From contig QPGO01000012.1 in assembly GCA_008632985.1 (NCBI GenBank), positions 62,001 to 126,000 of the forward strand: a DNA stretch of 64,000 nt. The letters are read 5' to 3'. The translations under genes and the position numbers were made by a program. Every line of letters begins with the position of its first letter. Within the stretch, counting starts at the first letter, position 1. The stretch comes from Psammoneis japonica (lineage: Eukaryota). Under the pieces are notes generated by a model. The model was not told where the DNA came from. It did not search any database and saw only the letters and a program-made list of their open reading frames with translations. Shown here one piece after another: positions 4,278-52,665 of the stretch.

Positions 4278-4366
<89 letters not shown>

Positions 4367-20039: not shown

Positions 20040-20770
20040 GTTGCAGCTCACTTTCTTTAAGTGCCGCTGCTTGCAGCCACCTTGTTCATTGCCAAAAAAG
20101 TGCAGAATGCGTTGTGAGAGTGCAATGTGGATGAACCAACACCACCAACAGGAACAGCAACACAGACTCATCGGTGCATCCGGTGCTGCCGATTCTGGAG
20201 CAGGCGAGTTTGCAGCAGCTGCTGCAGTTCTCTTTCTTGAAGAGCCACTGCCAGCACTGGCAGCCACCTTGTTCATTGCCGAACGGTGCAGAAAACGTTG
20301 TGGAGCATGGTGAAGATGAGCCAACCACAGCCAATGGAGACGTCAATGTGTGGACTTGCCTGTGCATCCAGTGCCACTGATTCCAGACCAGGTGAAGCAA
20401 CACTGCTCTGATCCACCTTGTTCATTGCAAAGAAGTGCAAAACACTTTGTGAGAGTGCACAGGACAACAACAGCAACCAATTGAAGCTGCAACATGGACT
20501 TGCTGGTGCATCCACCGCAGCCAATTCGGTTGCTTCTGCCGCCAGTTCCCGACCCCGCGAAGCCGATTCAGGACCAGCATGTGAAGCAACATTGCTCTGA
20601 CCCACCTTGTTCATTGCAAAGAAATGCAAAACACTTTGTGAGAGTGTGTGGGACAACAACAGCAACCAATTGAAACCTCGATGTAGACTTGCAGGTGCAT
20701 CCGCCACCGCCGATTCGGGAGCTTCTGCCGCCGGTTCCCGACCCATCGACATGGAGTTGGCAGCTGCTGC
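20040..20770. repeat. Four diverged tandem units (~150-190 bp) sharing CCACCTTGTTCATTGC
   Basis: Core motif at ~20077, ~20264, ~20413 and ~20602. Confidence 0.85.
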
Positions 20771-20895
20771 GGTTGTCGCAGTCAACCCCCCTGCTGCTCT
20801 TGACCACAAACAGCGGAGAAACTTGGGAAGCCTTTAAAAATGAGCCCAACAACTCAGGCAACCTCCAATGGGTTGCCTCCCCACTCTCTGCCTCT

Positions 20896-21190
20896 GCAGT
20901 CTGTCTGGGTTTGGATGTAGAAATTGGAGAAGACGGATGCAACGTAAGTGAACACATCAAAAACAAATGAAGCTCTTTTTGAGCATGCCTTTTTTGAAGA
21001 GTGTCACATGTGGCAAAGCACTTTTCACATGTGTGATTCTGAGAGCTGCAGGAACAAGCACTGCCTGCAGTCTTTCTGGGTCTGGACACAGAAATTGGAG
21101 AAGACGGATGTGTTGTTGGTGAGTGCATCAAAAACCAACGAACCTCTTTTTGCACATGCCTTGTTTGAACAGTGTAATTTGTGGCAACTT
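20896..21190. repeat. Two diverged ~120-bp copies, period ~170 bp
   Basis: GAAATTGGAGAAGACGGATG at ~20920 and ~21091 with alignable flanks. Confidence 0.85.
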
Positions 21191-24122
21191 GTGATGATTC
21201 TGGATGCAAAACTCTGACATGCGCGATTGTGACAATGCTGCAGAAAAGCAAGTTTGTGACGTGCGTGCACACAACACACAACAACACGCCAGCAGCTCAG
21301 CATTCTGGATGTGGTGGATTCGTGACAGCACACTCGCGATCACAAAATTCAAGCTGTGCCCGAATAAAACACCATCTTGACCAACCAGAAGGATGGCAGG
21401 TGTCACCATGCGCTGAGCTGCTGTCATCGGCCAATGGGGTGAAGTCTTTCACCACCATGGCCGGTTGTCGATTTGCAGATTTGCGACCACACGTGGGATC
21501 CACGTGCATCACAACAGCGCACGCTCTTGTTTTTCAAACTTTGGGGAGAGCGTGTGCTGTTGTGAAATGTGCAGAAAATTGCGCATGTAAAACACATGCT
21601 GAAAATGCCACAGACCAACGGGCTGCACAAAAGTGAAGAAAAATGAAGTTGGGTCACGTGCGTGTGTGAAGTGCTGCAGACTGCACACACGCAAAGACAC
21701 ACACACGTGAGTGAGGAGGACAAAGTTAAAACCAAGTTCAAATTGATTGCGGTCAAAAGGAAACCAAACCATGCATGACAAAAAACAGATTTTGTTCCTA
21801 ATTGAATTAAACATTGCATGCATTTGATTGAAGCTTGTGCAAGAAAAGTCAATGAGACATCAGACAAAATGCAAAAAACAGCTTCTTTTTGTCAAGCACT
21901 TTTGCTGGCATTTTTTAAGTTCTCTGCTTGTTGACAATTTCAACAATGCACACTCAAAATTTTACAAAGGAAAGTGGAGACCACTGTGTTGCCGCCTCTG
22001 ATGTGTGTCCAGGTGTTTTCTTCAGATGTCAAAGAAAACACCCATGCCAATCTTGCTGTTCTCAGAAATGGCTGGCTGAAGCACAATGCCTTTGGCGCCT
22101 TTCTTGCGAAACAGGGTGCACCAACAATTGTGCAAAGAAAGAGAGCAGAGAGTGTGGTGTGGAAACGCACAAGCACAACATGCAGTGCATCACAATTAAA
22201 AACTGTTCTGTCACAGTCCAATGCTGCAAGCCCTCACCTGGAGCCAGAGCTCATCACCCATTGCATCTCACTGTTTTGGTTGGTTTTTCTTGGCGCACGA
22301 GTCTTGGGGTATTTCCATTGACTTTGTTCACATTGCGTGCTGGCACACAAGTGTGTGCTGTTTTTAACAACCAAGGTTCTCATGTTAAAAGGACAAAAAG
22401 GAGCTTGCGCACAGGTGGCTGTGGCTCGACATTGTGTGGAGCCCTCTGCCTGCAGATCACACGCACTCTGGCTCCATGTGGGACCCCACACCACTTGACT
22501 GCAACATTGGTGCTTTTTGTCATGTGTCAAACAATGTTTTGCATGTGCATTTCTGTGTGACTTTGGTGACATTTTGTGTCATTTTGTAACGTGGTTGATG
22601 GGTGATCTGTTTGTGAACAACTTTTGTTGTTTTTGCCATGCAAAGCAATTTTTCAACATGTGCAGAGCTGTGTGGGGCACGATTTTCAAAATCTTCAAGT
22701 GTTGCTGAGAGGCACAACTGCCTGTGCTGCAAACATGGTTGTTTTTTCAAGGCCTGTTCCAGCTCCAGGTGATCCGCTTTTCATCACGAGAGAGGCCGAT
22801 TTTTTCTGCGCAATTTGGCACGTCAAAGTCCTTCATTTTTGATCATTTCAAAAATCGAAAGGTGAGTGCACACCCGAAAACACATGTAAAGTGCACACTT
22901 GCCCTTCAATTTGGCAAAAAACGGATTTTGAAAAAGTCAATTGCGCCAAACCCAAAAATGGGCAAATGATGGGAATCGAACCCACTCGGAGCACCTGGAG
23001 CTGGAACAGGCCTCAAATGTCAAAGACAAATGTGTTCACATTGCCAAAAAACACATGAACTGTGGAGCTCACATGCAGAATTCTGCAGGCCCGTGCAACA
23101 TGCAGTCCGATGGGGCTGGAAATCTGTGCAGCCTCCCCTTTTTTATGGCGCGCCTCAACATGAGAGAAAAGTGAGGGAGGTGGCTCAAAAACGGTGCATG
23201 GTGTGTTTTCATTTGCAAAATCAGTTTTCTCAAAGATGGGCACATCATTTTGCAGACAACCAGCGCTGGTTTCTTGTTGAGTGACTTGTCACATGTTGCC
23301 GTTGCAAGTGGACTTGTGTGCAGCAAGAGCACCAACGCGGTTGACGCGGGTGGCGGGCACCAGGGTCTTGCCAGGGTGGCCAAAAATGTCGTCATTCTCT
23401 TTGCACGATCGCACCAAAATTTCAAATTTGTCATTTCCACCTGTTTCTCGCGTAAGAAGGTATCCGATGATACTACGGTCGTTCCGGAGAAACTCCGAAC
23501 ACGACAGAACAACAATTTGATATTTTCTTTTTCGACATTTCCGTTCCCTTCACCTCTCTTCAACAATCCATACTACTTTGTTATCTGTTTTTACGACCAC
23601 AACATGACAAAATTGACCCTAATTGTAATGTGTCGAATTAAGCCCGATACTTTTTGGTCATCAGCTCTGTTAAGCGATGAATGTCACTTTTTCTAACAGG
23701 AGTCATTCATTATAATGACTGTCAATTTTTGTCCATGTCAAACTATGCACGCATTAATTGCCACGTCGTATCTAACCCATCGGATATCTTGGGTGACGAG
23801 GAAGGACATTGCTACAGATGTCATCTGTGTTATTTTCTACTGGTTTTCTCAGTATTGAAGAAATCACGGTCATTATTCGGCCTTCGAAATTCTCTGGGGG
23901 GTCCCCTTTTCGTGAGAATACGACGGAGGAGACATTCTAACCACAAACATTACGACAACACCCACCATCACTTCCAGAGCGGACAAACACAAAAGGATTA
24001 AAAGCACGAATAGCTCAAAAACTATTGATACAGGTAGGCACATCCGATTGACAACTTTCATTGATTTCCAGTGAGAGGATTGACACTCACGATTTTGTCT
24101 TCGGTCCAGCAGAATAGAAACG

Positions 24123-34856: not shown

Positions 34857-35954
34857 GGTTTTCCCATCAAAGAGGAGTGCATTTACTTTAGGTGTTCACT
34901 TGTCCGTTGATCGTGGTACAACTTTAAACCAGCACTTACTTGTCGTTTGAATGCTTAGAGACTGAGAAACGTAATGCAATTCACATTCCTTTCGAGGCGC
35001 ATTCTATTTTTTGCAGGATCAGATTTATCGTATGTGGGGGTAGTTTAGAGAGAAGGCTTCTCGTTCGTTGGTGAATTTGAGAACGGCGCGAACTTCGAGG
35101 AGATTCCTTGTGCGCGATGGAAAAATTCCATTTCAGCAGTCACGAATTCCTTCGATGACCCGCAGACACAAACATCCGCAATGAGAGCCCCGAGCGAGTT
35201 CCAATCCAGAAGAATGCCACTTGCGCAAGTGATGTCATGTCCCACACTTGAGTGGCATGCATCACGCCGAGCCATCCATCTCATTGCACTCTCACACCTG
35301 AGCATTGTGTGGCATGGGCTGAGAAGCACACACAGCAAGAAGAGAGCCAAGGTGTGCTGAGCTGGCTGAGAAGCACACGCTGAAAACATCTGCAGAGAGA
35401 CCAAAATGCAGCACAGGCATGGTTGGAATTTTTTCCTCATGTCAACTGAGCATTTCCCATGACATGGATGGCAGCCATTGGCACACAAGAGGTGTCCGCC
35501 TGGACACAAGAAGCACTGCACGTGCGCCAGAGCAGCGGCCCACTTGCAAAAACTCAGGCTTTGGTGTCACTGTTGGGCACAGCCAAAAAATGGACTTTGC
35601 TCCCAGACCAAATGTGCACAGTGGAAGTCATTGGACTTGATTTCCACATTTGGACAGGCAGCATGGGTGGCAGCACTGCATTTGGCGGCTCTGGTTGTCG
35701 GGCTGGCGCTGTTGTGCGCGGGCGTTCTTCATCACAGCTGCTCTGCCTCAAAGGTCAGGCACGCTGCACTTTGGCCTTTTTTGCCATTGGTGCCACCAGC
35801 ATGAGAGGACAATTTGAGCTCAGCTGACAATTTCAGTGACACACAAGCAGGCCAGCAACAAGTGCTCAGCAGCAACCTCTCAACGAAAATGGAGACAACA
35901 GCAACCACTGGACCCACAGCAGCAAGACAACAAAACCGGTTGATCTGGAGAAGC

Positions 35955-36124
35955 TTGCAGACTAGCAGTGTCGGGACAATCTAATGGACATCCAGGACAG
36001 ATGATAATCGTGTGCTAGATGAGAAAGAAAAGTGAGCAAAGGAGAGATCATCGGATCTCTCCATGCTGTCTGTGCCAGTCTGTCCGACACAAGGGAGTGT
36101 GCTCCCCATCTCGGATGTCTGTCA
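35955..36124 (-). repeat. 3' LTR
   Basis: Colinear with 42862-43031 (19 mismatches in 170 by my count); preceded on the minus strand by a polypurine tract. Confidence 0.95.
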
Positions 36125-36133
36125 CCCTCCCCT
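36125..36133 (-). other. Polypurine tract AGGGGAGGG
   Basis: Abuts the 3' LTR. Confidence 0.85.
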
Positions 36134-39100
36134 GATGAGCAATGCAATGCTCAACAAGAAAGAAAGAGACGATCCGAACAAAAAGAGAGGACCAGAGTGG
36201 CAAAGAACAAAACAAATAAAAAAGAGACACACCCAAGACTCAATCCACAACAAACCCGATGACAATCAACGGCAATGTCCCATCAAACGGTGGGCATGGC
36301 GGGAACGAAGCATCCAACCCACAGCCTTGGTCAGTGCATCAGCAGGGTCAATGACACCCGGGACATGTCAAGTGACAATCTTGCCTGCGTCATGCCAGTC
36401 TTGGATGGCAAAATGTTGAGTGTCAATGTGGCGGGATCGCTCCGCAGGCACCTTGTCATTGATCATCTGGATGGCAGAGGAGCCATCAATGTGCGAGGGA
36501 GTGGGGTCACGTTGAGGAAAGCCCAATTCTTCCAGAATCATGCGGAGGTGCAGGGTCTGTTTCGCTCCAGCAACAGCTGCGAGGAACTCAGCTTCTGTGG
36601 AACTGGCAGCAGCAATTGTCTGCGTGCGGCAACGACGATCAATTGCATCACTGGCAAGGACATGCGCGTGTCCAGCAGTGGAACGGCGACGCCACAGTTC
36701 ATTGGCATGTGCCGCATCAATGAAACCAAGAAGTTGGAAAAGGTCATCAGCACGAGGGAAGTCTGGGAGAGATGGGTCATCCTCAAGCCATTCGAAATCG
36801 CGAGGAGGCAGACCGGGATCGCGCTTGGACTTCTTGTGCGTCAGTCCCCAATGTTTGGTGCACCGCAAATGCTTGGCCACATGCTTGAGTGAATCACAAT
36901 GAAGCTCAGCCGGGGCCTTGGAAAACTTGGACAAGGTGACAATGGGATGGCCAATGTCCAAATGACAGCAGGAGCAGGCAAAGACCAACTCACCCAGAAG
37001 AGAATGGCAAGAGAAACCCTGGGACTCAGCGAGAGTGTCACACTCAGGAGCACCCTCTTCAGGACCTTCAGCAGCACACAGATCAGGGACACAATCAACC
37101 AAAATAGGTGCAGCCTTGAAGTCAGAGTCAGATTCATTTGCAGTGGGAGCATCCCAACCATGGGTCTTGAAAACACGATCAAGGCAGCTGGCAACGTTGA
37201 CAGCAATTGAATCGTCATTTTGAATGACATCCTCACCATTGAATTCAGTGACCAAGCCCAAACACTTGAAGGGAGGAGCATCCTCATTCTCCATCTGGAG
37301 AGCCTTGCCAATGTGGTCACAGATCTCTTTTGCAATCTTTTTGGAGGGACAAGCAAGAGCAAAATCATCGACCTGTCAAAGGAGAAGGACCTTGACACCA
37401 TCATGTTCACCAGAATGGATGCACTTGTCATGAGCAGTGTTGCGGAAAAGAAGTTTCGCACCCGTTGGAATCGAATTGATGTGCTTTTCCCAAAGGACAC
37501 CAGCTTCAGGGTGACCTTGAAGAGCACGCTTGAGTGGGAGAACACAGTGGCGGGGCACTTTCTTGCCAAATCTCTTTTCACACCATGCAGCATGTGCATC
37601 ATCAACAGCAACAAAAACCGGCTGTGAAGGACCAGGAGAATGAGCGCAGGCATCTCAAGCATCACCACCAAAGACACGATGCAACACAGCTGCACTGAGA
37701 GCAAAAAACATCTTTTTGATGGAGCGTTCCACACACGACGAATGGGTGGAAGTCAACTTGTGCAAGGCCGGCATTGCTGACTTGGAACCATCACCACATT
37801 GCCGAGAACAAAGTTGTCCATCTGGCTTTGCCATGCAATCCCAATGTGGCCGCATGACGTTCACACCAGGGGGACATGGTTGTGGAGGACCATGCATGCC
37901 AAGGGCACAAAATTGATCCAATTGATGCTGCTCGCCTTCTTCCCATTCAGGCCATGTGTCAAGTTTACAAAGCTTGGCACGGGTGAGGCGGTAAAGAGCA
38001 GCTTCCTCCGGAGTGAGAGAGCAGGAGCTAATCGCATTGAGGTGTGCATGGAATGCGTCCACAGGGATGGCCTCATCCGAAAAATCATCATCAGGACAGA
38101 GAAGGGTCACAACAGATCGCACATCTTCCAAAGTGAGTTCGGGAACATGGGAGTCATCCTCCATGGAGTCAGGTTCAAATGACTCCGCTTCCTCAAATGC
38201 CTTGTTAAGGGTGCGGGAATCCAATCGTCGTTCCGGTGCAAAAGCAATCTCAAAGGTCGGGATTTCATCATGAAAGACCTGAGACAAGGCCTCTTCAGCA
38301 TCCGATGGGGTAAAAACTTCACGCTTGTTGACAGAGACAATGCATGCACCCACAATCTTGTTGCAAGCAGCATGGAGGGAAGAGAATGAGGATGCCGCAG
38401 GACTGTGCTGCTTGATTTCCAACACATGGACATGGTCCATTGGTGCACACTGGGAAAATCCAAAACCACAGGTGGGGTCCTTTGGGGGGCGTTTCATGGT
38501 GCATGCAACAGTCGTTGCAAAAGGATTCAATGAAGAGGCAAACACAGGAACAGTGGTGTCCTGTGTTTCAGCTGGAAAAGGCTGACCATTTTCCGCACGC
38601 TGCAAACGGATGGCATTGGGAGGAAGTTGATCCAAAAATGGATCATTCATGCCTTCATTGCAGTGCACATGTTTGGCCGTCTTGACTTTGTCAGTCTCAG
38701 GATCCCACCACATGACATTCTTCAGGGTGTTTGGAAGGCAACCAAGGAATGCGCCCTTTTTGGAATTGGTCCGGAAGGTGGCAGAACGAGCAGTGGACCG
38801 TTTGGACCACACTCGACATCCGAAAGTCTTGAGAGCAGCAAAATCTTCGACCTTTCCGGTGGCAAGAGTGATGGGTGCCGCATCTTGATCTTTCGCAGGA
38901 GTGGCATTCTTGATGCGGAGGTGATGGTAAAATGCACAGGGCCAGAATCGAAACAGAAGGTTGGCGCCAATTAAAATTGCACGAATCGCGTTTTCAACGG
39001 TTGAATGTGAGCATTCAACAGGTCCACATTGGTTGGATGCGCCAGCGCCAGAAGGACAGATGTCACACTGGAATTCTCATTCAAAGAGGTCACGAACTTT

Positions 39101-42100
39101 GGGGGTTTTGCATGATTCCCCACCTTGGTCCACAAACACATGTTTGTCACAACAATTTGGTGAATGTCGATCCAAGAATCGGCAAAGCCACTTGAGAGGA
39201 CTGGCTTTGGAAACCCTTGCCACTCCATGGAGCATCCGTGTGTGATGATCGTAGACAGTGATCCAACACATTTCACCATCACATCCAAGATGATCAACCT
39301 TGCGGTCTTCATTCTTGGAAGTCTGGCCAGCAAAAGCAAAATCTACAGTGAGACCTTGGTGTGGCTGGGTTGCCTTCCGAGTCATGTTCGGTCCAGCAGG
39401 AGTCTTGACTTGCTTGGCTTGGAAACACACAGGACATGTGTCAAGGACAGGATTGGCATGTTGGAACTTTGGGATGCCCTTGACATGCTTGTGAGCATTG
39501 TGCAAGCAGTGATCACTGGGATGTCCAAGGTGTTGATGCCACAGAAGACGTTCAGTCTCAACTTTGAGAGAGCGGACAGGAGCAGAGGTAGACAACGGAG
39601 GGGAGACATGGGGAGCCAAGTCACACTGCATCAAAAACAGCTCAGCATCCATCAACAAGGGATCAGATGGACTTTGTTGGACATTGACAAAAAAGACTGC
39701 ACGTTGACATGCATCATCAACATCATCAACCAAGGACAAGTCAGGGGTCTTTGATGTTGAAGGGACACAAGACGCAGACAGAGGAACCAGGGGTTGTGTG
39801 AAGACCTTGCCATGTCAAAGTGTGCCATGGACAACTGCCTCTTGAGCATCAGTGGAAGCAGTGCAAGCACAAGTGCCATCGGCGCATGTCTTCTCAAGGA
39901 GCTCGGAGCGAATGGACTGAGGTTTGAAACCAGAAGCCCACGCAAAACCACATTCATCAATCAAAGTGGAACGCAGGCTGGGATGGCAAACGGTGCGTGC
40001 AAGAAGAAAACCTTCAGGATTGTCTGCAGGCACCTGCAGACAACCAAAGCCATGAGGGACCACATCAGAGCCTTCAGCAGCAGGAAGCATCTTCAAAGGA
40101 CAAGGGTTGTCCAGTCCAAAGGGAGCATGGGCATGGAGGAGGTTCTTGTCCCCTGTGCAGGACACCCAAGCACCAGCATCAATCTGTGCACGATGTGTCG
40201 TTGAATCACGAAGTGCGTGATTGATGGGAATGACTGGAGCAGTCAAGGATGCAAAAGTCGTAGGTGACTCCGGGGGAGAAAAAATTGGGGAGATGCGTGT
40301 GGCACTGAGAGGCGACAAATGCTGGGTGTTGGTCACATCAAGATGCTCAAATTCTTGGTCTTGATCAGTGGACAATGGGACATCAGCATCCAGTGTAGAA
40401 AGGTCTGGTTCCCTCCCCTGATTGTGATTGCCAGGGTCATCATCAGGAATCGTCTTGGGATCTGGAGTGCCAGCCTTCGTCGAGCCCGAAAGAAGGTCAG
40501 CAAATGATGCAGGTGAAAGAGGAACATCAGCGGAAGGCAACGAGTCGGTTGGACCCACTTTCAAAGTTGCCCCGCTTGCAGGAGTTTTCGGATTGGAGGA
40601 GGATGGGTGGCATTGTTCATCCGAACATGACAATGGCCCCAGAAAAAATCCTTCTTGGACGTGTCAGACTTGAGTGCATCACGAGCACGCTGATCACATT
40701 GGAGGAACTGGGAGAACCGAACAAGATGAGTGCGCAGGTGCTCAGCATTGTTCAACACAGGACACTCATGGAACAAGTGGTTGTCACCACAAACAACACA
40801 TGGACGATTCTGTGCAATGGCAGGAGAGGACTTGATCCTGCAGATGCAGGCCTTGTAGATGCCATGGAGGGCCTGTGCATCATCATCTGCAGGGACATCT
40901 ACAGCAGCAAGTTCACTCACAAAATGCTCCATGGTTTCCGCAGGTTCTTCCGCAGCAGGAGGTTCAGGTTCCTTGGGAGGCTCCTCAATCGCTGGAGGCA
41001 GAGGAGAGACTTCATCTTTGGGAAGTGAGTCAAGACCTTGGATGGGAGCTGCGAGAGAAGGAGCAGGCGAAGTGTGAAGACGATGTGGAGGACATTTGGG
41101 AGGGTCCTTGACACGAAGAGCAGGACCATCCAGTTCCTTGAGAATCTCACTGACAGTTTCAACAATCTTCTTCTGGGTGAACTTGTGTTGTTGGTTCTTG
41201 TCTTCCTGGGCATCCGCTGTTTTACAGTGAAGGTGCTTGCCACAGCGGGTGTTGCTGAGAAAAATGTTGAGCTCACCAGGGTTGTCAAGAGAGGCATCAA
41301 CATTGGAGATGACAGCTCGTAGCTGGAGACAGTCTCTGAATGGAGCACAGTGGCTAAGGACCGCAAGATTGTTTTGGTGCGGGCAGCTCTTGATCAACTC
41401 ATGTGGACGCTTCGTCCAAATCGGCAGGATGTTAAAGAGAATCATCTTGACAGCAGCACATCCATCACCATGGCATTGACGAACAATGTCAGGGTGCTTG
41501 GAGTCTGCCGGAAAAATTCCAACTTTCTGAATGTGCTGGAAGACAGTCAGTTTCATTCGGTCAAGTGCTGCTGTCATCCAGAGAGGGAGATCATCGGTTG
41601 GGTCATTGCCACAGGTGAAACCCCAATTTCCACCATCCTTGATAAAACACCACAGAGGGTGCATGTGTGTGCCACAAGCCGAGGCTTGTTGGGCTGCAGC
41701 AGTGTGCCATGCACGAATTCCTTGAGGAGAGATGTCATCACAAGTGAGGGGGTCACGAAGGAAAGACTTTGCATCCCAGTCAGTGCGATGAACGAAGAGA
41801 GAACCATCAGCAAGGATGAGACGCTCAGTGCCATCCTCGTGATGAAGGTTTCCAGACTTGCAGGGTGCCAGAGATTTTCTGAGTGCTGCTTTCCCGGCTT
41901 CCTTGCATTGACAGCGGGCTGGCACATCCTTTGGGGAAGTCCTTTTGGATTAAAGGTGTGTGATGCGCTGGCAGCAGTCAAGGAAGAAGCCGTGCCAGCA
42001 GCAGTCATGGCAGACGGTGCAGGAGATGACACCGTGGGAGCAGAGTTCTTCAATGCATTTGTCACAGCTTGCTCAAACTGTTTTGGACCAGGCAAATGAG

Positions 42101-42851
42101 TGGCTGAGGCCTTGGCAAAGTCTTCAGGAGCAGGACCTGCAGCAGCAACCGGTGGAGGTGCAGAACTTGAAGCAGCTGGTGGGTCTGGATGCGGATCATC
42201 GGAGACATCATCCCAGAAATCACAACACCAAAAACGAGGGCTGAAATGGAAACGTAGAGTCCCAACACACACATGCATGGCATCGTCGTTCTCTGAGATC
42301 GCCTTGATCACAGTCTTCTGAAGAGCACTGAGGTTCAGACAAACTGGGGGGCCTTGAGGGGTGGCCACAAAGAGAGGAGCCTTCTCAATGATCAGTCCGA
42401 TTCATGCAAGATCTTTGGTTAAGATGGCTTCAGGGATGATGAGATTGTGAACGATTTTGTGTCGGAGGACAGCAACAGCGTCGCTCTTGAGGCCTTGAGG
42501 GGCAAATCCATCCAAAAGATCTTCAGGAGCAGGGATCTCGTCCAAACAAAGGGCATTCAGGAAAGCATGGGCATCGGGCAAGCGATCATGTGGGCTGAAT
42601 TCAACCCGTGTCGTCTTGATCTTGGTCAAATCGATGGTGTTTTGATTTTTGTTCACCATGGTTGTGCAGGAAAAAAATCAAATTCCTGCACAGAGCTCTG
42701 GCATGTGTTCTACGGTGGTCGTTTGATCACAAATCGAGAGGTGAAAAAACAGCTGTGACAATGATGATAATTTCAATGAAGAAAGGGTTGACAAATCACA
42801 CAGCAGGAGTTGCAACAGAGGAGCACAGAGGAAGAGGAACAGCACACTGCT

Positions 42852-42861
42852 GCTCACAACC
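42852..42861 (-). other. Primer-binding site, half-tRNA-iMet (Ty5/copia) type: GGTTGTGAGC
   Basis: Immediately follows the 5' LTR; one mismatch to GGTTATGAGC. Confidence 0.75.
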
Positions 42862-43031
42862 TTGCGGACCAGCAGCATCGGGACAATCTGGCTGATGTCT
42901 AGGACAGATGACAACCATGCACTAGATGAGAAAGAAAAGTGAGCAAAGGAGAGATCATCGGATCTCTCCATGCTGTCTGTGCCAGTCTGTCCAACACAAG
43001 GGAGTGCACTCCCCATCTCGGATGTCTGTCA
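42862..43031 (-). repeat. 5' LTR
   Basis: Colinear with 35955-36124; followed on the minus strand by the PBS. Confidence 0.95.
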
Positions 43032-45589
43032 GAAGCCTCTCCAAGCTTCAGCAAAAAGTCTGGAAAGAGCTCATTTTCTTGACAAGCCCCATGGCTTTGT
43101 GAGCAACAAGTGTCCCAGAGGACCCCAAGCAAGTGGCTGGGAAAAGTGGCATTTTTGCTTGCAGTTGTTGACTGAACAATGAAATTTTTTTGTGGAACTC
43201 TGATGAACCAGATCTGTCTGACAGCAATTGGCGCTGTTTTTTGAACAATTCAGCAGGATTTGTGTCACCAATGTAAAAACAAATCCATGAAATTCTGCTG
43301 TGTGGAGTGTCCAAATGATTTGAGTGACATTGAATGGAGTCATGCAAATGATTGTTCACATTTGTTGAAAATGGATTGACAAGCACATGAAAGTCATCAG
43401 AGTGATGTGCTCTGCTCCATTTTACAATGTCCAGGGAAGAAAAGAGGGGAGTTTGATCTTCAAGCATCCACAAAGTCAGTGCTCCTGGATCTTAAAGACT
43501 GGCTGACATTTGGGTTGTGCTCACATGTCTGCTGAGTGAGGTGGCGCATCCTTCTGTTGGCCAACACAGCCAAGCCACAGAGTTGGCCACCAGCAGCATT
43601 GCTGCCCCCCCCCCCCCCCCTGGCAGGACTCAGCTGCACTGATGCATGGAGAACAAGAGTTTGTGGTTCTTTCTACAGGAGCAGTGCCAATGCCACACAA
43701 CCTGCTTGTGTTTTGCATTTTTTGCTCTCTTGCTTTTATGAAACAGCAGTCAGTTGGAGAGCACCTCTGTCCCCTGTGACCACATGGGCAAAAAATCATG
43801 TGTGCATCAACTGTTGTGACTGTTGCCACAAGCAACTTTTCATGCAGTGCTCTGTGCACACAAACCATGTGTTTGGGCCCTGGCAATTGTGGTGTGGATG
43901 TGCTGTTGTGGGAAACAAGAGTGGTGAAGAAGAGATGACTCAAAAGCAAATCAAATGCCAGAGACCAACAATTGAGAACTGAAAGAAGCAAAACAGACCA
44001 GACAAGGCAGCTGATGGCAAGTGGCTGGTGCAAAAGAGACAAGCTTGAGTTGGTGTGATCTCCACAAAGATGGCAGGCCACATCAGGGTCAAAAATTGCG
44101 TGCCAAGTTCTTGCAAAATTGAGTGTCAGTGGCAAGCAAATGTTGCTGTTTTCAAAGTGAAAAACATGTTTGGAGTTGCAAGTGAGTGCACTTTTCCATT
44201 GCTGAACAGAGCAGCAGCAGGTGCAACATGCGACAGCTCTTGTTTGGTTTCTTGCCCCAGTGTGCTGCAGAGAAGAACCACAAGTCAGCCAAAATGCACA
44301 AGAAAAGCCACAAGGTGACAACAATGAACAGAGCTGAGCAGCACACATGTCCACAACATGGGTTTTCTCACCCAGGGTTTCACTTTCACAGACACGTGTG
44401 CAGCACTCCACATGTCCCTGCCTCTCAGCACCCTCATTGCCCAGTGTGTGCTGGCTGTGAGAAAGCAACCTCATTTTGCCTTGCCTGCCATGGATTTTGC
44501 TGCCACCCAATTTTGTTAAAGTGGAGCTCATTTGCAGATGTTGTTTTGATTTCAGCCTTTTTTCTTCAAAGCAACACAGAGGACATGCACTTTGCAAAGA
44601 AGGCCCAGTTGTGCACTGTGCACCACACCACTGCAAAGCTCAGGCACTCCTCTTCTGCACAGCATGAAGCCCACTTTGTGGGGATGGAGGTTGCACATTG
44701 TGTGACTTCTTCACAGTGTCACCATGCATGACTTGCTTTGAGCAGACTGTGACTGGGCTGCCCTTCACAAGCACTGAGCACTTGCCTGTCTTGGCAGCAA
44801 TGTTCCTGCTGTTGTTCTTGGCTTCTCCATCTTGGCAGCAGTTCTTGGAACTTGGAAGAAAGAGTGAGGTGGGGGCTTTCTGCACAGTTTGACATGTCTA
44901 GCCCTTCACAAACACTGGCTTCCTCATGGCTTGGATGACCTGCTTTTTTTGCTGCTGGCACCCCAAGGAAGGCCCAAGTGGTGGCTGCTGCCTCCCTTGT
45001 TGTTGCTGCTGTCCAAAACACACTTCTTCTTCTCCTGTTGCAACTGCTTCACAGCCTCCTTTGCTTTGTCTGCTGCCTTCTTCTCAGACCTTTTATCATG
45101 GCCTTCTTGTGCAAGCTCCCAACACTGCTTTGGTTTGCAACATTGAAGAGAAAATGTCACTCAGTCATGCACAATTGCCCTCTGTTGCTCACTGCCTTCT
45201 CTTCTGTTGAAGCCAGCACTTTCTCCACACTGTTGAAGCCAGCACACTCCCCTCAGAGCTTTCTGAGGTTGGTTGTGGCACAAGTCATGAGAAATCAGAC
45301 CTCAAGATGGAGCTTGCACATGTGGCAGGAAACCTGGAGATGAAGCTCTGGGAAGAGAGCTGCAAGGGTGGGTGCTGGTGTGAGCAGCAAGAAGCAGACT
45401 TGCTCTCTGCCCGTCAATGTGCAGCACAACACATTGACAAAAAAAGACTTGTGGTGGCTTGTTCTGGGTGCTCACAGTGTGCAACACTGCCTCCATGTGC
45501 AACCACATCGACCACAGAAGCAGCTCACAAGCAAAGCTGTTGGTTTTCTTCAATCTGTTCTGAAGTTTCCTCCACCTCCTTCTCTTTGG

Positions 45590-46400
45590 TGTTGCCTTTC
45601 ACTCCATGCCTCCTTCCATCTTTGTTGAGGCTCCATCCCATCATTGTGCACTGTGTCAGGTTGGGGCAGCAACAGGGCATTGTCAAGTCATGCGGCAGAC
45701 CAGCAAAGCATTGGAGTGCAAAAGGGAATGAAATGGTGTGCTGTCCAAACATTTCATGACAACACAAAGCAACTCATGACAGCTTCAATCATGCACCATT
45801 GAAGTCAGCAAGCAACACATGATCAAATCAACCAAGTGACTCCATGTTGCAGTTGTTTGTCTCAGCAATGCTGAGCACACTTGAGATCAAGGTTTTGAAG
45901 TTGATGCAGAATTGTGCAGCAGGTGCTGGCATCACACAGAGCTTGTTTTCTGGTTTGCAGTCAACAATTGTGTGCAGCAAAATGTGTGTTTGTGCATTTG
46001 CTCCATGCCTTCTTCCACCTTTGTTGCTGCACCCTCTGATTGCTGTGTTTGCTTGGAGCAGCAACAGGGCATTGTTGAGTCATGTGGTGGGCTGGCAAAG
46101 CATTGGAGCAAGTGCAAGAGGGAGAGAAACACTGTGTTGTCTGTGAACATTTTATGATGCACAAAGCAACTTCATGATCATTTCAACCACATGCCACTGA
46201 AATCAGCAAACAATGCATGATCAAATCAACCAAGTGACTCCATGTTGCAGTTGTTTGTCTCAGCAACACTGAGCATGCTTTGCTTCAAGATTTTGAAATT
46301 GATGCAGAATTGTGCAGGCACTGGCATCATGCAGAGTTTGTTTGCCAGTCTGCAGCTGACAATTGTGTGCTGCAAAATGTGTGTTTTTGCATGTGGAAGC
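45590..46400. repeat. Tandem duplication, period ~398 bp
   Basis: CATGATCAAATCAACCAAGTGACTCCATGTTGCAGTTGTTTGTCTCAGCAA at ~45818 and ~46216. Confidence 0.9.
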
Positions 46401-49400
46401 TCCTGTTGCACAACATCCATGTCTTGAACAATGGCGCACTGCTCATTTGCTGTTTGTTTGGGTGCCCAAACAGTGGCACCACAACCCAACCCCCCTGGCA
46501 ACACAAAGTCATCAGGGTTGACACTTTTTGCTGTGGCATTGCAGACATGGGGCAACTGCAGTTAGATGTGGGGGGTGTTTTTCCAGTGGGATTGCTTCTG
46601 CCCTGCAAGCCTGCACTTGGCAAGAGGCAATCTAATTGCACTGAGATGGTGTGATTTTGTCTGGCAGTCAAGCTGACAAGAGACATTTGCTCAACTCACT
46701 TAAATGACAAAATTTTGGACTCAAGTGATCCAGCTAAAAATCCAAGGAAGGGTTTGATGGACAGACCAGCACCAATCACTTTCGTGCAATCCATTGTTGA
46801 AACTTTAAAGCAAGCCTGGTTTTTCTTTTAAAATGAGTTTCAGTCATCTGTCAAAACTGCTCCATGATGTGATTGTTTCTGTGGTGATCCCATTTTCCCA
46901 TTTTTGCTCTTTTCTGTTTTGCATTTTGGTTGTTCATTTTTGTTCTCTGGTGGACTTGTTTCCAATCTTCTTTTGCTCACATGGCTTTCATGAAGGTTGC
47001 CTGGAAACTGACAGAATGGATTTTTTGTTGATGGCACATCTCTTCTGCACAGTGTGAGTCCAGGCAGAAGGGAGCTGGACCCAGCAATCATGAGCCCCCT
47101 CACTTGAATTTCATGCTCAAGCTCATGTTCTTGCTTTTTGCCACAGCACAGGACCCCCTTGGTGCACTTTGAGCAAGAAGGGGGCCAACAAAATGGCTGT
47201 CAGAAGCTGTTTTGTGGCCTGACTCTGAAGCTCCATCAAAAACATGTTCCAAGCTGGCCATGCAAGACTGTGCATGAGCTGTGGTGCCTCTGTTTGCGGT
47301 GATGACAACCTGACTTTGCAGCCAGTGCACAGGGCAGAACAGCATTTTCTTTCTTTTCAGACCATGTTTCTTGCACAAAAGTGAGAAGAACGTTGCAGTT
47401 GTTGCCCTGTGATCTTTTTTTTGTGTGGTGCACAATCTGCGCATGTGACAAGGCATGCCCTCAACATCAGTGCCCTGATCTCCTAAAACTTTTCTCAAGC
47501 TTCCAGCTTGTGCATCCCTGCAGCTGTCATTTTGCCATTTCACAGTCTCTTTTGCAAGCTCTGGCAAACATGGTCCTTGCTGAATCTGTGCCCCCCCCCC
47601 CCACCTCCCCGCCAAGTCTGACAAAACATTTTTGTCTCTCCAAACTGCACACAACCCAGCAAGTTGTCCACACAAATCAAATTTGCTGTTGTTTGCCAGC
47701 TGCACCCAATTGGAAGAAACCCTTGCAGAAAACAACAGGTGAGCTGCTGCAACTCCAGGGCTCCAGGGATGATTTTGCACTGAAGTGCACCAAGTGTGCG
47801 CTGTTGATGAATTGTGCCCTTTTTGCATTGGCAAACAATGTTTCATCAACAATCAACAGTGCAGGTCAGGACCAATGTCTCTCTGCTCATTTGCAGTCCA
47901 GGAAGAATGCAAAGTTTCCAGCTTTGTTTTTTGTTTTTTGGGTCCTGGGGTTTGTGCACAAAGCACTGTGCACCATCTCACCAAGCACGTGCTGCTTTGC
48001 AACAACACTGTGCCTGGCAATTTCTTGCTCAATCAAATTGCAAAACCTTGGTGCACCATGTGTGCAACAACATTGTTGCTGACATGCCTGTTCCTGGTTC
48101 CACCCACCCAGGCAAAAAGCATGGGTGTCAGTGTTTGGAGTTTTTTCTGCCAGGAGATGCAAACCCTTGAGCTTGCACAAATCTAACTGCCGCTCAGCAA
48201 GAGCACTTCACGCACAGGACGTGGGGTGATCCTGCATGTGCAACTGGTTGGCACATGCTGAAGTGCAAGCTTGGCAACAACACGTGCTGGAAAGCTTGCT
48301 TCTGCTTTTTTTTGCCCCTCTCCAGCCCATGCACTCTTGACATGTGTCAGAGCTGGGCTGGTCTGACAGCATGTGCTGCTGTGCTGGTCAATTTAATTTT
48401 CTTGCAGAAGAGGCTTCCAGCAAAGAGTTTGTGCACCTCAAAATGTCTTGGCTTTTGCCATCATGTCTGCAACTGCCAGCGTGTTTAACAGCATTGTGCC
48501 AGTGACAGAGATGCCACCAAAGGTGCTGAGAAGGGGACTTCTTTGACTTGTGTCTGCATTGTTTGATGATGCTCTTTGCATTTTTGTTCATTTGCATCAC
48601 ATGTTTTCTGTGTTGCACTCCACACAAGCTGCAAATTTGCTTGAAGATGTTCCAGGTTTTGGTTGGTTCATTTCTTTTTCACAGGCAAGTGGGGTCTGTG
48701 ATCATTGTTTCAATTGAGTTTTGTCACAAAACTCCTGTGTCACAGTTTGCAAACCAAGACAATGGCACTGAAGGCAGCTCTCTGTTTGATCATGACCACC
48801 AAGGGTCTCATTGCAGCAGCACATCCTCTTGCTGTGTTGTGGCCCAAATTTTTGGCACACCCACAATGTGTCAAATTTTGTGAGGCAAGATTTTGGAAAC
48901 AAGCACATGCTTGGTTTTCTGCTGTGTTCATTTTTGGTCCTGCAGGGTGTGAACTGGGCTTGTTCACTCTCCAAGCACAAAACCGCAAGTCAGCAAAAGT
49001 GCAACAAGCACCCGGCAATTTTCTGTCTCTCCACCCTCAACTGTTGCAGCAGTTTGATGCTGTGCCTGTGCCATGTCAACTGGCCTGCTGAGGAACATGG
49101 GTCTCTCTACTTGGTTCAAGCTGGAATGAAATTTCTGCGTCATTGCCAGCAGAATTGTCCTTTGTGAGATTGGCGCTGTGCTGGTCTCCTCTGGCACTTT
49201 GGAGCCACCACTGGCAGTTGTGCCAACAATGCCAGAGACGCCAGTGGTGCCAAAGGGGGTGCTCTGTAGTGCCAGTGCTCAGGAGAAAGGGAGACATCAT
49301 GGTGACTTCTCTCTTTTTGCACCTGCCACCCAGCTGCCAGTGCATTTCCTGTGTCAATTTCTGTGCAAGATGCTTCAGCACCACTTCTGCAATTTGATTG

Positions 49401-49560
49401 CAGTTTCTCACTCATTGCTTCATTTCCCACCCTTTCTTTCCAGTTTTGCAAATTTTCCTTCCTTGCCTTGTTTCTGTGGATTGTCAAAATTCATCCAGAG
49501 CAAAACAAAAACTTCCCTTTGCTGTTTCTTTTCACATGTCACTGTGAAGGGAAATCCCCC

Positions 49561-49592
<32 letters not shown>

Positions 49593-49897
49593 GTTTTTAT
49601 GGCAAACTCTGTGCACCAGATTCCTTTGACAACACTTCAGTTGCACCACATTTCTGGAGCAATGCAACCTTTTTGAACAAGATCCCAAAGATGGGCACAT
49701 GTCCTTTTTTCAACATTTTGTTTTTGGTGTCTCCCAAGCCACTGGGGGGTGTGGTTGTTGGGATTTTTCCATTCTTTGAGCACAGTCAGCTGTGTGAAAA
49801 ACACCCAGCAGATTTCCTGTCTTGACTTGAAACACAAAACAGATGGATCATTCAATCAAAAATTCCTGCCGCACTGTTTGGTGTGCTGGGGGTGTGG

Positions 49898-49985
49898 GTC
49901 AATCTGGGGCTTGGGTCTGGACATGACAGCTGTTTGGTGTGCTGGGGTGTGTGTCAATCTGGGGCTTGGGTCTGGACATGACAGC
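49898..49985. repeat. Two copies of GTCAATCTGGGGCTTGGGTCTGGACATGACAGC
   Basis: Directly visible. Confidence 0.9.
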
Positions 49986-52665
49986 ACTTGAAACATTGCA
50001 GACTTTTAATTTTGATGGTCCAAGTTGGTGTGGGTGACAGAAAATGATTGAATGGTTGACACTTTTCTCCCCCAGTTGACACGAGGTCTTTTGTCTTTTC
50101 TTCTGCCTGCTCTGCAAAATGGCAGAAATTGTTGAGAGAATGCAAGGAGCCACAATGTCACCTGCACCATTTCCACATGACATCCTTTGTTGTGTTGCAG
50201 AATTGTCTGTCTTTTGCATCATGGGCAAGTCAAACTCTCTGCATGTCAACAGCAGCAAATGCATTGTTGACTTCTGTCATGAGGTCAGACAGCATTTCAT
50301 CATTGGATCCATCTGTGATCTCTTTTTTGACACAGTTTTGCCATTCTTTTTTCTTTCCCTCATCAGGATTGACCAGTGAAATCCTCTTTTCACCAAGTGG
50401 CTCAGGCACTCTGAGAGCACTCAAAAACTGTTTGGCAGCTGTGTGTGCATTTCTTTGCAGTTTCATGCCAAAGCAAGAGTCAAGTCATTCATTTTTGGTG
50501 TGAGCCATTTTGTGACTTCAAGTGACACAACCCCTCAATTTCATGTGTGTTGTCAGGACAAAAGCTCCAAAACACCAAAGATGTGGTTTTCTGATGACTC
50601 ATTTTCCCAGCCAAGCAGCTGCCATCATTGACATTTTCTTCCAAAAACATGTGCCCCCTTGAGACAGTTTTCATGCCACCATGTGGTGCCAAGTGTTGTG
50701 GCACACTGACAGAGCAACAACCTCAATGGCGTCTCTGTGAGACACACTGAGACCAGCATGTGAACATGCTGGTGAAAATGCACATCACACCATTGCTTTG
50801 ACCAAAGAGCCCACCAGCCTCAGAGACCCCCCATTGGGCCAGGGTGGCCAGCTTCTTCTTGTGAGATTCTTGCTTTGTCAAATTTGTCAGAGTGTCCTCA
50901 TCAACTGACCCACTGGACTTCATAAACAGCCCACTGCTGATGAGCTGTCTGGGGGCAACATTCCCAAACCTCTGAATTTGCAAGGTTGTGAGCACTTGCA
51001 AACACATGCCTGCTGGGCTGGGAGCTGGAGCTCTGTGTCAACAACTCCACAGTGTGCTGCTGCACACCACAGAACAGGGAAGTTAAAAATCAAATTACCC
51101 TCAGCACTTTGTTTGGCATGAGGCAAAATCTCTGACAATTTGGTTGGAGAGGAAAATCAGCTTCCTTTTCACATTGCTTTTTAAAAAGCAACAAAAGGCC
51201 ACTGTCGCACACATCAACCAGCAGCTGTTGCCCCCTCATGCTGCTGTTGAGCAGCAAGTGACAATGTGGTCATTGCTAACGGCTACAATTTGAGCAGTAA
51301 AACAGAAGACCATGCAAAGACGACGCACAAAAAAAAGATTCATTTTTTGCCTTCATCTTTGACGTCTACTCTAGAGGGACTAGGTCTAGGACTACCGGTA
51401 CAGTCAGCTTTCTCACGATGAAGTTTATTTGCCACGTTGGAATCTTTTTACTTGCTTGCGCTCTTTGTGAAGCGCTTGAAGCGACAGGTGAGCGAAATCC
51501 TTTGATCTTTGATGATGCCGTGTTGCGAAAAGGACGCAATGGCGCCTTCTTGCCTTAATTATTTGTGTCTTCTTTGAAAACGCCTGTTTGACATGTCTTT
51601 CGTACCTCCCTTGCCCTTGTAGTAGATACAACGTCAATGGGACCGAAGGATGGCGATTCCTCCTCTACGATGAATTTGCGAGTAAGTTTCTTTTTGAAAA
51701 AGAACCAATGGTGTTGTTCCAAGCCTCCATCTGTCTTTCTTTTGTATTTCCTCCATACTCACGACACCACCTCCTTTACACTGTGCTCTATTGTTTCTGC
51801 TGTGCTTCTTGCTGCATGCTATTTTGTAGCGCGCACTCAGCAGCGACAGCAGTGGCAGAGATAGCAGCAGCAGCAGCGACATCAGCAGCAGCGATGTGGT
51901 AAGCACTGTAAGTAGTCAGCCAAGCCATTCTCCGATTGTACATTGTCTCTCAATCCTGCAACCAACACTTTCCGCCTTTCTGTCTTCTGTTCTCTTCTAA
52001 CACAGGGGCGAAACTTCAACACCGTGAGTAACAGCACTTTAAGCCAGTTTGGACTCATGCGTCAGAACTGAATCTCGTCGCTCACTCTCTCTTCTTTCCT
52101 ACTTAAACACCTAGCCATGCTCTGGGGATTCAGATTGTGATGAAAGGTTTGACTTTTGCAGGGATGGAAGATGGTGAGGTTTGAATGCTGCTCGTCTATT
52201 TTGCCAATTCTTTTGCAACAGGGATGTCTCATCGTTAAGGAACAATCTCACATTTTAATGTGTCATCTTTTCTAGCGTATGGAAGTATTTCAGCGGATCT
52301 CGTTGTGACCGTGATGCTCAGTGCCGGAGCGGTTGGTGCGATCTAAACTATACTCAAAGGAACATATGTTCGGATCCATTGTCCTCCGGTGCATTCTGTA
52401 CCAGGAATGAGCAGTGCCGAAGTGGCCGATGCAACACGAACATCCTAGTCTTACAATGTGTCTAGGTATATCCTGGTGTTCCAAGAAATGGAGAAGTTTT
52501 GTGGTTGTGCATATTTTGGTCGAAAAAGTATTAAATGTTGTTGCAGTCTAGCACTATTATGTTCATCCAGTAGAGCCTTGTCCGGCTTGCCATCCCTCCG
52601 TTCCTACCAATGAGTATATTAGCCGGCGAAAAGAGATGAAGGTTCATCAAGCATTGTGTTTGGTA

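Follow-up and report, generated by a model that had tools for sequence, protein, structure and literature searches.

The two long terminal repeats (LTRs) of a Copia insertion in the window, that is, in the whole stretch of 64,000 nucleotides that was analysed, differ from each other mainly at TA, CG, CA and TG dinucleotides. This raises the question whether the changes were made in an RNA or cDNA intermediate before integration or in the chromosome afterwards, and which process could have made them.

The insertion is oriented on the minus strand and is bounded by the pentamer GAAGC, read directly on both sides at 35950..35954 and 43032..43036; this 5-bp duplication supports one insertion event. 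In the orientation of the element the 5' LTR (42862..43031, TA observed/expected ratio, o/e, 0.20, CG o/e 0.36) and the 3' LTR (35955..36124, TA o/e 0.37, CG o/e 0.49) are 170 nt long each. Directly upstream of the 3' LTR lies a polypurine-tract-like run (plus strand CCCTCCCCT, 36125..36133, minus-strand feature), the role of which is assigned by position only. Translation, Pfam and Copia relatives define a Copia-type pol frame (36371..40663, minus strand) with the integrase followed by the RT/RNase H region, the only interruptions being in-frame TGA codons at 39815-17, 39077-79, 37655-57 and 37376-78. Its Pfam matches, gag_pre-integrs (residues 84-135) and SH3_retrovirus (320-387), both fall into the 5' part, and neither RVT_2 nor another RT domain was detected by Pfam in the pol of the element. 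With TGA translated as X, pol matches full-length Copia polyproteins, best of all P0147 (48% identity over residues 2-1147), which has the domain order gag_pre-integrs, SH3_retrovirus and RVT_2. The 3' part of the element's pol aligns to the RVT_2-bearing part of P0147, where RVT_2 itself reaches 28.1 bits, under the cut-off of 31.6. Upstream of pol an open frame (40564..41949, minus strand) with a motif similar to a Cys-His knuckle was assigned as gag-like by position only and gave no Pfam match. The nearest named relative of the element is a Pseudo-nitzschia protein. Direct LTRs, a short target-site duplication and an integrase encoded upstream of the reverse transcriptase, the latter placed by alignment to P0147, are the features of Ty1/Copia membership present here. 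We read the LTR pair as the ends of a single Ty1/Copia-type insertion in a diatom chromosome, old and oriented on the minus strand; the copy is dead, with four in-frame TGA codons in the pol frame and not a single conserved Tyr remaining.

Aligned without gaps, the segments 35955-36124 and 42862-43031 yielded exactly the 19 differences in 170 nt that had been claimed in the original prediction, and the classes of difference described there as well as its example sites were found again at their coordinates. The identity of the pair is 88.8%, with 18 transitions and one transversion (ungapped alignment over 170 nt and repeat search). Four differences are double swaps of TG and CA (offsets 14-15, 34-35, 58-59 and 145-146), which occur in both directions with TG in either copy; three are CG versus CA (offsets 4, 55 and 131); four are TA versus CA or TG, namely three TA versus CA (offsets 8, 38 and 50) and one TA versus TG (offset 28, within a 4-nt cluster); and four are of other kinds (35984, 35985, 35986 and 36008). 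Three CG are common to both LTRs, next to the three single CG losses. According to 200,000 simulations per placement scheme, four or more TG/CA swaps among 19 randomly placed differences with 18 transitions are expected with P = 0.9-1.2e-4, and with P = 1.5-2.7e-3 if 16 differences are confined to the first 60 nt to match the observed clustering. Isolated single differences are of the type "CG/TA versus CA/TG" in six of seven cases (P=0.045). These single-site classes are weak evidence, because 47% of the LTR positions fall in a YR dinucleotide, and taken alone they are barely above chance.

Clustering of the LTR differences, a feature absent from the original prediction, was also seen: 16 of the 19 lie within offsets 4-59 (P=1.7e-5).

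The surroundings of the element are as unusual as the LTRs. Three sharply bordered islands purged of TA and CG make up 24.8 of the 64 kb, and the Copia element is located inside one of them (35047..51083), TA being dense through 35046 and resuming at 51084. The second island comprises 1896..5300 (TA o/e 0.04 and CG o/e 0.11 for 2001-5200), the third, which contains tandem repeats, 17933..23452 (TA o/e 0.07 and CG o/e 0.37 for 18001-23000). In total, 90 TA and 411 CG were counted in the 24,836 nt of the islands versus 1478 TA and 2197 CG in 39,164 nt of gene-bearing DNA. Expressed as o/e, TA amounts to 0.04-0.07 in islands versus 0.52-0.58 in gene regions and CG to 0.07-0.47 versus 0.96-1.01, while CA/TG are roughly doubled in the islands (1.5-2.0). 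The TA borders are sharp to within roughly 130-310 nt. The stop-codon triplets of the islands occur at 2.0 (TAA), 0.85 (TAG) and 23.3 (TGA) per kb. Island GC lies between 0.47 and 0.52, near that of the genes, and biased gene conversion was rejected on this ground.

Within the island of the element there is no TA at all from 35047 to 35962. The interior of the element has a TA o/e of 0.06 (26 TA in 6737 nt) and a CG o/e of 0.47, the right flank (43032-51000) one of 0.04 and 0.07, respectively, and the non-element flanks (35047-35954 and 43032-51083) are TA-purged as thoroughly as the element itself. A tandem duplication in the same island (45602..46395, 78% identity), which is unrelated to the element, carries the swap signature of the LTRs with 16 CA/TG swaps, 38 TG/TG and 37 CA/CA steps and with zero shared CG and zero shared TA. 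Only one of the three islands is identifiable as mobile DNA: the 94 ORFs of the other two gave no Pfam match, an Rfam search of the 64-kb window returned nothing, and tblastn with 170 Copia relatives as queries found no relics in the window outside the element.

Loss of TA in the islands depends on its neighbours. Tetranucleotides of the form RTAY account for two of the 90 surviving TA in islands versus 428 of 1478 in genes, and TTAA for 26 of 90 versus 60 of 1478; for CG, by comparison, RCGY are the best-surviving contexts in islands. All four LTR swaps have a purine on the 5' and a pyrimidine on the 3' side, versus four of 21 conserved TG/CA steps (P=0.0055), and across three repeat pairs such flanks surround ten of 14 swaps versus 22 of 102 conserved steps (P=3e-4). 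When a simple decay model is fitted to the counts from the LTRs, about 2.9 of the four swaps fall to TA ancestors. Context and rates thus suggest TA rather than CG as the ancestor of most of these swaps; one or more of the four may be CG-derived.

The direction of change can be read from conserved codons. For this, the pol of the element was aligned with 25 full-length Copia relatives, and a column was regarded as conserved for Tyr when at least 60% of the relatives have this residue. None of the 21 Tyr columns is kept in the element; they are now occupied by Cys (10), His (7), Trp (2), Ser (1) and Phe (1), and the codons are TGY in ten and CAY in seven cases (17/21). Conserved residues other than Tyr are retained in 292 of 392 columns, a contrast with a P of 2e-12. 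A smaller set of relatives agrees (Tyr kept 0/10, Cys 4, His 4). TAY has become TGY or CAY, i.e., A has changed to G on either strand, and from the ratio of ten Cys to seven His it follows that both strands were affected. Arg is conserved in 32 columns; in 16 of these the element still has CGN, and in six the codon was lost in the manner of CpG decay, from CGN to CAY (four), TGC and TGA. The decay of CpG in the element is slower than the loss of TA, with six of 22 CGN Arg codons lost versus all 21 Tyr codons. The TGA concerned lies at 37376-78, where 24 of 24 relatives have Arg, and an alternative genetic code for TGA was rejected for this reason.

The family of the element is abundant, with matches in 3669 contigs of run X1 at 80% likeness or more, and these contigs define 2038 variable places, of which 1604 are transitions. 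The family majority base was read at the 40 best-supported of the 2038 places, two of which lie in the LTRs. Among these best 40, the combination of TA in the family and TG in this copy was found once only, TA in the copy with CA in the family three times, and 11 transitions involve CG, so that part of the internal TA loss may be older than the insertion. A scan with a 20-nt LTR core gave one chance match of 22-23 nt each in the metagenome and genome collections and no match in the viral collection. Searches for related loci based on P0147 found none in viral contigs and two from other hosts in genome contigs; the purge is absent from one of these (L003), and the TA-poor ends of the other (L004) are satellite arrays.

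We consider post-integration hypermutation of TpA to TpG or CpA at the DNA level, together with a slower decay of CpG, as the probable explanation of these findings (probability roughly 0.78). After integration, the element and the surrounding repeat island would have been exposed to a region-specific mutation of double-stranded chromosomal DNA. TpA would be converted to TpG or CpA, which corresponds to A>G on one or the other strand, with a preference for TA before a pyrimidine or G and with TAA largely spared, and CpG in the same islands would decay more slowly to TpG/CpA. A palindromic step lost on opposite strands in the two LTRs would then leave TG in one and CA in the other, and a step lost in one LTR only would leave TA/CA, TA/TG or CG/CA. 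The purged non-element flanks with their sharp borders support the original prediction, which had placed the changes after insertion, in chromosomal DNA and on both strands instead of explaining them by RNA or cDNA editing; further support comes from the change of conserved Tyr to Cys (10) and His (7), which is A>G on either strand, and from the 16 TG/CA swaps in the unrelated duplication. The agent is presumably an enzyme directed against silenced or foreign DNA, most probably an adenine deaminase acting on DNA as has been proposed for Bigelowiella natans, and the loss of CpG would be due to 5-methylcytosine (5mC), which the CpG methylation of diatom repeats would lead one to expect. Several observations count against this explanation: the LTRs are richer in TA than the interior of the element (six in 340 nt versus 26 in 6737 nt, P=0.004), their differences crowd into one third of the LTR, three of 14 swaps with unchanged flanks have Y_R flanks and fit better to a CG intermediate, and relative to the family majority the right LTR carries A>G and T>C changes at 42891 and 42915, both outside TpA.

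Since TpA is palindromic, a T>C change on one strand is indistinguishable from A>G on the other, and the same footprint could arise from thymine chemistry, in which the T of TpA is modified, for instance hydroxylated as in the 5hmU/base J pathways, and pairs with G. Modified thymine is present in some protists. Our literature search turned up no evidence of such a base in diatoms, the sparing of TAA can be stated for either strand and does not discriminate, and the sole report of the signature favours, as a hypothesis, an ADAT2-like adenine deaminase; we regard this explanation as unlikely. Slightly less likely still is CpG decay on its own, according to which swaps and CG/CA differences derive from methylated CpG and the TA/CA differences from unrelated C>T changes at CpA that created TA. 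It would suit the low CG o/e of the element (0.47) and its flank (0.07), the three single CG/CA differences of the LTRs, the six conserved Arg codons lost by CpG-type changes, one of them to a stop (CGA>TGA), the three sites among the best 40 of 2038 with TA in the copy and CA in the family, and the CpG methylation of diatom repeats, which the accessible text of PMC5124317 describes as a binary pattern of islands up to 30 kb. However, a loss of about one third per LTR leads to an expectation of about 0.4 CpG-derived swaps where four were seen, the fitted decay model gives P=0.06 for all four being CG-derived, and the contexts of the swaps are RYRY, which are the most favourable for the survival of CG and the least favourable for that of TA. 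Decay of CpG accounts neither for the disappearance of all 21 conserved Tyr codons, mainly to TGY/CAY, nor for the TA o/e of 0.04-0.07.

Editing before integration, whether ADAR-like on the RNA or by deamination of the cDNA, would have produced the TA-poor sequence and left the LTR differences as later noise. ADAR-type enzymes prefer a 5' U (accessible text of 10.64898/2026.01.13.699255), and the family is abundant with mostly transitional variation (1604 of 2038 places). Yet both LTRs are made from one template, so that edits would be common to both, while here the non-element flanks are equally purged, the same swaps recur in the unrelated duplication, and the strands are hit almost equally (Cys 10 versus His 7). 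Flanks, duplication and strand symmetry refute such editing as the main cause; a contribution in addition to the chromosomal process is possible, and as an explanation of the whole it is highly improbable. The least credible explanation is that no special process acted, the islands being poor in TA and CG by origin or selection and the swaps effects of alignment or chance. Nothing but the small size of the LTR sample speaks in its favour; against it stand Cys or His at 17 of 21 conserved Tyr columns, an ungapped alignment with a swap excess of P about 1e-4, the sharp borders of the islands and the specific context dependence.

TpA-directed hypermutation of foreign DNA is known from one report found in our literature search, which concerns a rhizarian alga and in its accessible text leaves the mechanism unproven. 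A diatom with this footprint, and there at saturation, would make the process a candidate for a widespread eukaryotic genome defence. With an LTR retrotransposon as target, the two LTRs date the damage to the time after integration, and a mechanism is constrained to act on both strands, within borders of roughly 130-310 nt, with TAA spared, and alongside CpG decay but faster than it. There are also consequences for annotation: because TAA and TAG are lost, purged islands are full of long spurious ORFs, and transposable elements inside them escape profile searches. In diatom genomes both effects will bias the annotation of genes and repeats.

Among known systems, the element itself resembles other diatom Ty1/Copia elements, known under the name "CoDi", in its LTR pair, the 5-bp target duplication and the integrase before RT; it differs in being dead and in an RT no longer detectable by Pfam. 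With ADAR/APOBEC editing it has deaminase-type transitions in a retroelement in common, including the 5' U preference attributed to ADAR; the changes are nevertheless post-integration, affect both strands and reach flanking non-element DNA, and edits shared by the LTRs, one-stranded and limited to the element were not what was found. Repeat-induced point mutation (RIP) of ascomycete fungi is likewise a region-limited transition hypermutation of repeats, which converts CpA to TpA and raises TA. The likeness lies in the defence-like restriction to repeats and regions, the destroyed coding capacity and the dinucleotide footprint. The direction is opposite: TA is erased here instead of rising with falling CA/TG, and the indices of the element (TpA/ApT 0.074, (CpA+TpG)/(ApC+GpT) 1.81) are the opposite of those of RIP-affected sequence by the usual thresholds, so that RIP was rejected. 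The 5mC-driven decay of CpG to be expected from diatom methylomes (PMC5124317) matches the CG part of the pattern, as CG is depleted and TG/CA are raised in the repeat islands beside CG-normal genes and the islands are binary in both; it accounts for this part only and is the slower process in this element.

The closest counterpart is the chlorarachniophyte Bigelowiella natans. According to the accessible text of a bioRxiv preprint of 2026 (10.64898/2026.01.13.699255), nearly all de novo mutations in two regions of integrated viral DNA (230 of 231) are A>G or T>C, the GC-biased de novo mutations are all at TpA, reverse transcriptase and DDE domains are over-represented among TpA-poor coding sequences, and an ADAT2-like adenine deaminase is hypothesized as the agent. 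Common to both organisms are the conversion of TpA to TpG/CpA, its occurrence on both strands, its confinement to delimited foreign or mobile DNA, and the gain of CpA and TpG with the loss of TpA; in the diatom, TA as the starting state is evident from the Tyr codons and probable for the LTR sites. The hosts are a stramenopile here versus a rhizarian there, and the targets an LTR retrotransposon and unidentifiable repeat islands versus giant-virus and virophage inserts. The purge is near saturation in the diatom (TA o/e 0.04-0.07) versus a Rho of 0.45 in the NCLDV region of B. natans; CpG is depleted in the same diatom islands, while the term "CpG" occurs 0 times in the main text of the preprint; and the preference for the 3' neighbour is visible in the standing sequence of the diatom islands, whereas in B. 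natans de novo mutations were observed. With somewhat less than even odds, we tentatively suggest that diatoms possess a RIP-like defence in which a TpA adenine deaminase acts on both strands, favours TA with a pyrimidine or G on its 3' side, spares TAA, and works across silenced, CpG-methylated islands until Tyr codons and TAA/TAG vanish. LTR pairs like the present one could then serve as a natural rate meter, and the defence would be the same system as that of Bigelowiella, hence old and widespread in SAR.

The alignment of 35955-36124 with 42862-43031 is gapless over 170 nt and contains 19 differences, of which 18 are transitions and one is a transversion. Because the pentamer GAAGC is common to both outer edges (35950-54 and 43032-36, directly outside the repeats), the two repeats are the LTRs of one insertion; a third LTR copy was not found within the 64-kb window. 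The Copia element lies on the minus strand, with a purine run, read in the sequence, at 36125-33 adjoining the LTR 35955-36124. The pol frame extends on the minus strand from 40663 to 36371 and is open apart from in-frame stops, and all six stops inside or bounding it are TGA. A gag_pre-integrs and an integrase SH3 domain were matched on the element by Pfam. For the protein search the frame was translated through three TGA codons, each as X, which gave 16,497 matches with E values up to 0.001. The best match, P0147 (48% identity over residues 2-1147), has the domain order of Ty1/Copia elements, namely gag_pre-integrs, SH3_retrovirus and RVT_2. One of the Copia relatives carries the label Pseudo-nitzschia.

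The difference classes of the original prediction were recovered with identical counts: four double swaps between TG and CA, three sites with CG in one LTR and CA in the other, four TA versus CA/TG sites (three TA/CA and one TA/TG inside a 4-nt cluster) and four differences of other kinds. Since pyrimidine-purine steps cover 47% of the LTR positions, about half of all transitions would score as "CG/TA versus CA/TG", and the single-site classes are weak evidence (6 of 7 isolated single differences are of this type, P = 0.045). The real anomaly of the LTR pair is the double swaps, for which the probability of at least four is about 1e-4 with 19 differences placed at random and 1.5-2.7e-3 with the crowding into the first 60 nt preserved. 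Sixteen of the 19 differences lie at offsets 4-59 from the plus-strand start (P = 1.7e-5), corresponding to a divergence of 27% in the first 60 nt (35955-36014) versus 2.7% in the other 110 nt (36015-36124). TA per nt is also higher in the LTRs than in the element interior (P = 0.004). These patterns could stem from partial inter-LTR gene conversion or from TA having been unevenly spread in the ancestral LTR. The right LTR contains a perfect 14-nt palindrome (43000-43013) with one swap site within its centre; in the left LTR the matching palindrome is disrupted at its swap site.

Dinucleotide composition in 1-kb bins has a bimodal distribution across the window, which consists of gene-bearing stretches (CG o/e 0.96-1.01, TA o/e 0.52-0.58) and three purged islands of 24.8 kb in all, with a TA o/e of 0.04-0.07, a CG o/e of 0.07-0.47 and a CA/TG o/e of 1.5-2.0. 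Island 1 covers about 1896-5300 (TA o/e 0.04, CG 0.11), island 2 about 17933-23452 (TA 0.07, CG 0.37), and island 3, which holds the Copia element, about 35047-51083. Both TA borders of island 3 are sharp: TA is dense to 35046 and then absent up to position 35963 within the LTR, and on the right only scattered TAs occur as far as 50923, with TA dense again beyond 51083. There are 26 TA in the 6737 nt of the Copia interior and 24 TA in 7969 nt of the non-element right flank, with CG nearly absent from the latter. As TA is equally depleted inside and outside the element but CG is only half lost inside, TA loss is the faster of the two processes. Island 3 also holds a tandem duplication (45602-46395) whose copies, some 400 nt long, share 78% identity. 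Between them there are 16 CA/TG swaps and 75 conserved CA or TG, and no CG or TA is common to both copies; the swap signature is therefore not peculiar to the LTRs. Within 1896-5300, 17933-23452 and 43032-51083, none of 94 ORFs of at least 90 aa had a Pfam match and no Copia relic was detected by tblastn. With TAA and TAG almost eliminated from the islands (2.0 and 0.85 per kb, versus 23.3 per kb for TGA), all six frames contain long open stretches, and these are likely to be annotated as spurious genes.

Among the host genes, Dcp2 (29692-31443, minus strand; protein similarity and Pfam) shares 63-70% identity with its ten best matches, the named ones being Fragilaria (66%, 65%), Ditylum, Seminavis, Thalassiosira, Nitzschia, Mayamaea and Fistulifera. 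These similarities identify the host as a diatom. Pfam-bearing ORFs of at least 220 aa within 3000-45000 encode ankyrin, IBR, hydrolase, pirin and Dcp2 proteins. All those at 9-32 kb are on the minus strand and apparently uninterrupted, so that the host looks intron-poor here.

As pairwise differences cannot order TA versus CA/TG, protein conservation was used to determine the direction of change. In an alignment of the element pol with 25 full-length relatives, 21 columns had Tyr in at least 60% of the relatives. The element kept Tyr in none of them and has Cys in ten, His in seven, Trp in two, Ser in one and Phe in one, whereas other conserved residues were retained in 292 of 392 columns (P = 2e-12). 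A separate alignment of 19 sequences gave the same picture (Tyr retained 0/10, Cys 4, His 4). The codons at the 21 columns include ten TGY and seven CAY; TA was therefore the starting state, changed by A>G on either strand in near-equal numbers. Of 32 conserved Arg columns, 16 are still CGN and six were lost in CpG fashion (four CAY, one TGC, one TGA), and the TGA at 37376-78 aligns with Arg in 24 of 24 relatives. Both palindromic steps thus decay toward CA/TG in the element, TA loss being about complete and CG loss about one quarter as judged from conserved Tyr and Arg columns. Six of 170 public Copia relatives (P0017, P0289, P0262, P0171, P0256, P0275) contain less than 1% Tyr, against a median of 3.5%, together with elevated Cys+His; similarly purged Copia copies are therefore present in other public data sets. 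A Copia relic is also present in L004, a contig from a bacterial MAG bin, whose TA-poor ends (1-850, 12195-13260) are short-period satellite arrays and were rejected as purged sequence.

The surviving TAs follow a context. TTAA accounts for 26 of 90 surviving island TAs versus 60 of 1478 in gene regions, and RTAY for 2 of 90 versus 428 of 1478. These counts are consistent with a rule that leaves the A of T-A-A mostly untouched, affects T-A-Y most strongly and T-A-G less, and lets a TA survive only when it is spared on both strands. The six TAs left in the LTRs (four CTAG, CTAA, ATAA) are in more resistant contexts, and RCGY are the best-surviving CG contexts in the islands. A 5' purine and 3' pyrimidine flank all four LTR swaps versus 4 of 21 conserved TG/CA (P = 0.0055), and over three repeat pairs 10 of 14 swaps versus 22 of 102 conserved TG/CA (P = 3e-4). 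A simple decay model fitted to the LTR counts (CG: three shared, three single losses; TA: one shared, four single losses) expects about 2.9 of the four swaps to be TA-derived, with P = 0.06 for all four and P = 0.42 for none being CG-derived. From flanks and model we infer that most LTR swaps are TA-derived.

The family is abundant in sequencing run X1, where 3669 contigs align at at least 80% likeness and 1604 of 2038 variable places are transitions. The copy was compared with the family at the 40 best-supported of these places. Eleven are transitions between CG and TG or CA, six in one direction and five in the other; three have CA in the family and TA in the copy, and at one the family carries TA and the copy TG. 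A full swap is found at 36652-53 (copy TG, all 11 covering contigs CA; C_G flank). At the two of the 40 that fall within the LTRs, 42891 and 42915, the left LTR has the family letter and the right LTR differs by a non-TpA change, A>G or T>C. These 40 places do not favour the TA-first reading, and part of the internal purge may predate the insertion. Such an outcome is predicted if the ancestral TA sites have become polymorphic among copies and hence never reach near-unanimous support.

The LTR differences are best read as a local sign of a TpA purge that ran across the island after integration, with CpG decay proceeding more slowly, a reading supported by the data. It agrees with, and widens, the original prediction that the changes arose after insertion, in chromosomal DNA and on both strands, which is borne out by the LTR differences, the Cys/His split and the purged flanking DNA. 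Editing of the RNA or cDNA by ADAR or APOBEC before integration, dismissed in that prediction as well, is excluded as the main cause, since the two LTRs of one insertion differ, both strands are affected and the DNA flanking the element is also purged. The Tyr codons cannot have been lost through CpG decay alone, which predicts about 0.4 swaps versus the four seen. RIP was ruled out by direction (TpA/ApT 0.074, (CpA+TpG)/(ApC+GpT) 1.81). This leaves a region-targeted process on chromosomal DNA turning TpA into TpG/CpA. Adenine deamination is favoured as the agent because the only precedent proposes it; a thymine modification mispairing with G would leave the same sequence.

This kind of process is already known from one very recent preprint on a host of another supergroup. 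Of 302 nuclear mutations recorded in Bigelowiella natans mutation-accumulation lines, 231 lay within two integrated viral regions, and 230 of these 231 were A>G or T>C; these GC-biased mutations were all at TpA, with a rate of about 6e-7 per site per generation. Reverse transcriptase and DDE domains were over-represented among TpA-poor CDS, and an ADAT2-like deaminase was put forward as a candidate agent (bioRxiv 10.64898/2026.01.13.699255). The words CpG, diatom and retrotransposon do not occur in the main text of that preprint, and our literature search found no diatom report of TpA-type hypermutation. New here are the host lineage, the target class and the added constraints on the mechanism. 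For the CG landscape, the binary pattern of the window matches the methylome described for Cyclotella cryptica, in which CpG methylation is concentrated in repeat islands of up to 30 kb and gene regions are unmethylated (PMC5124317).
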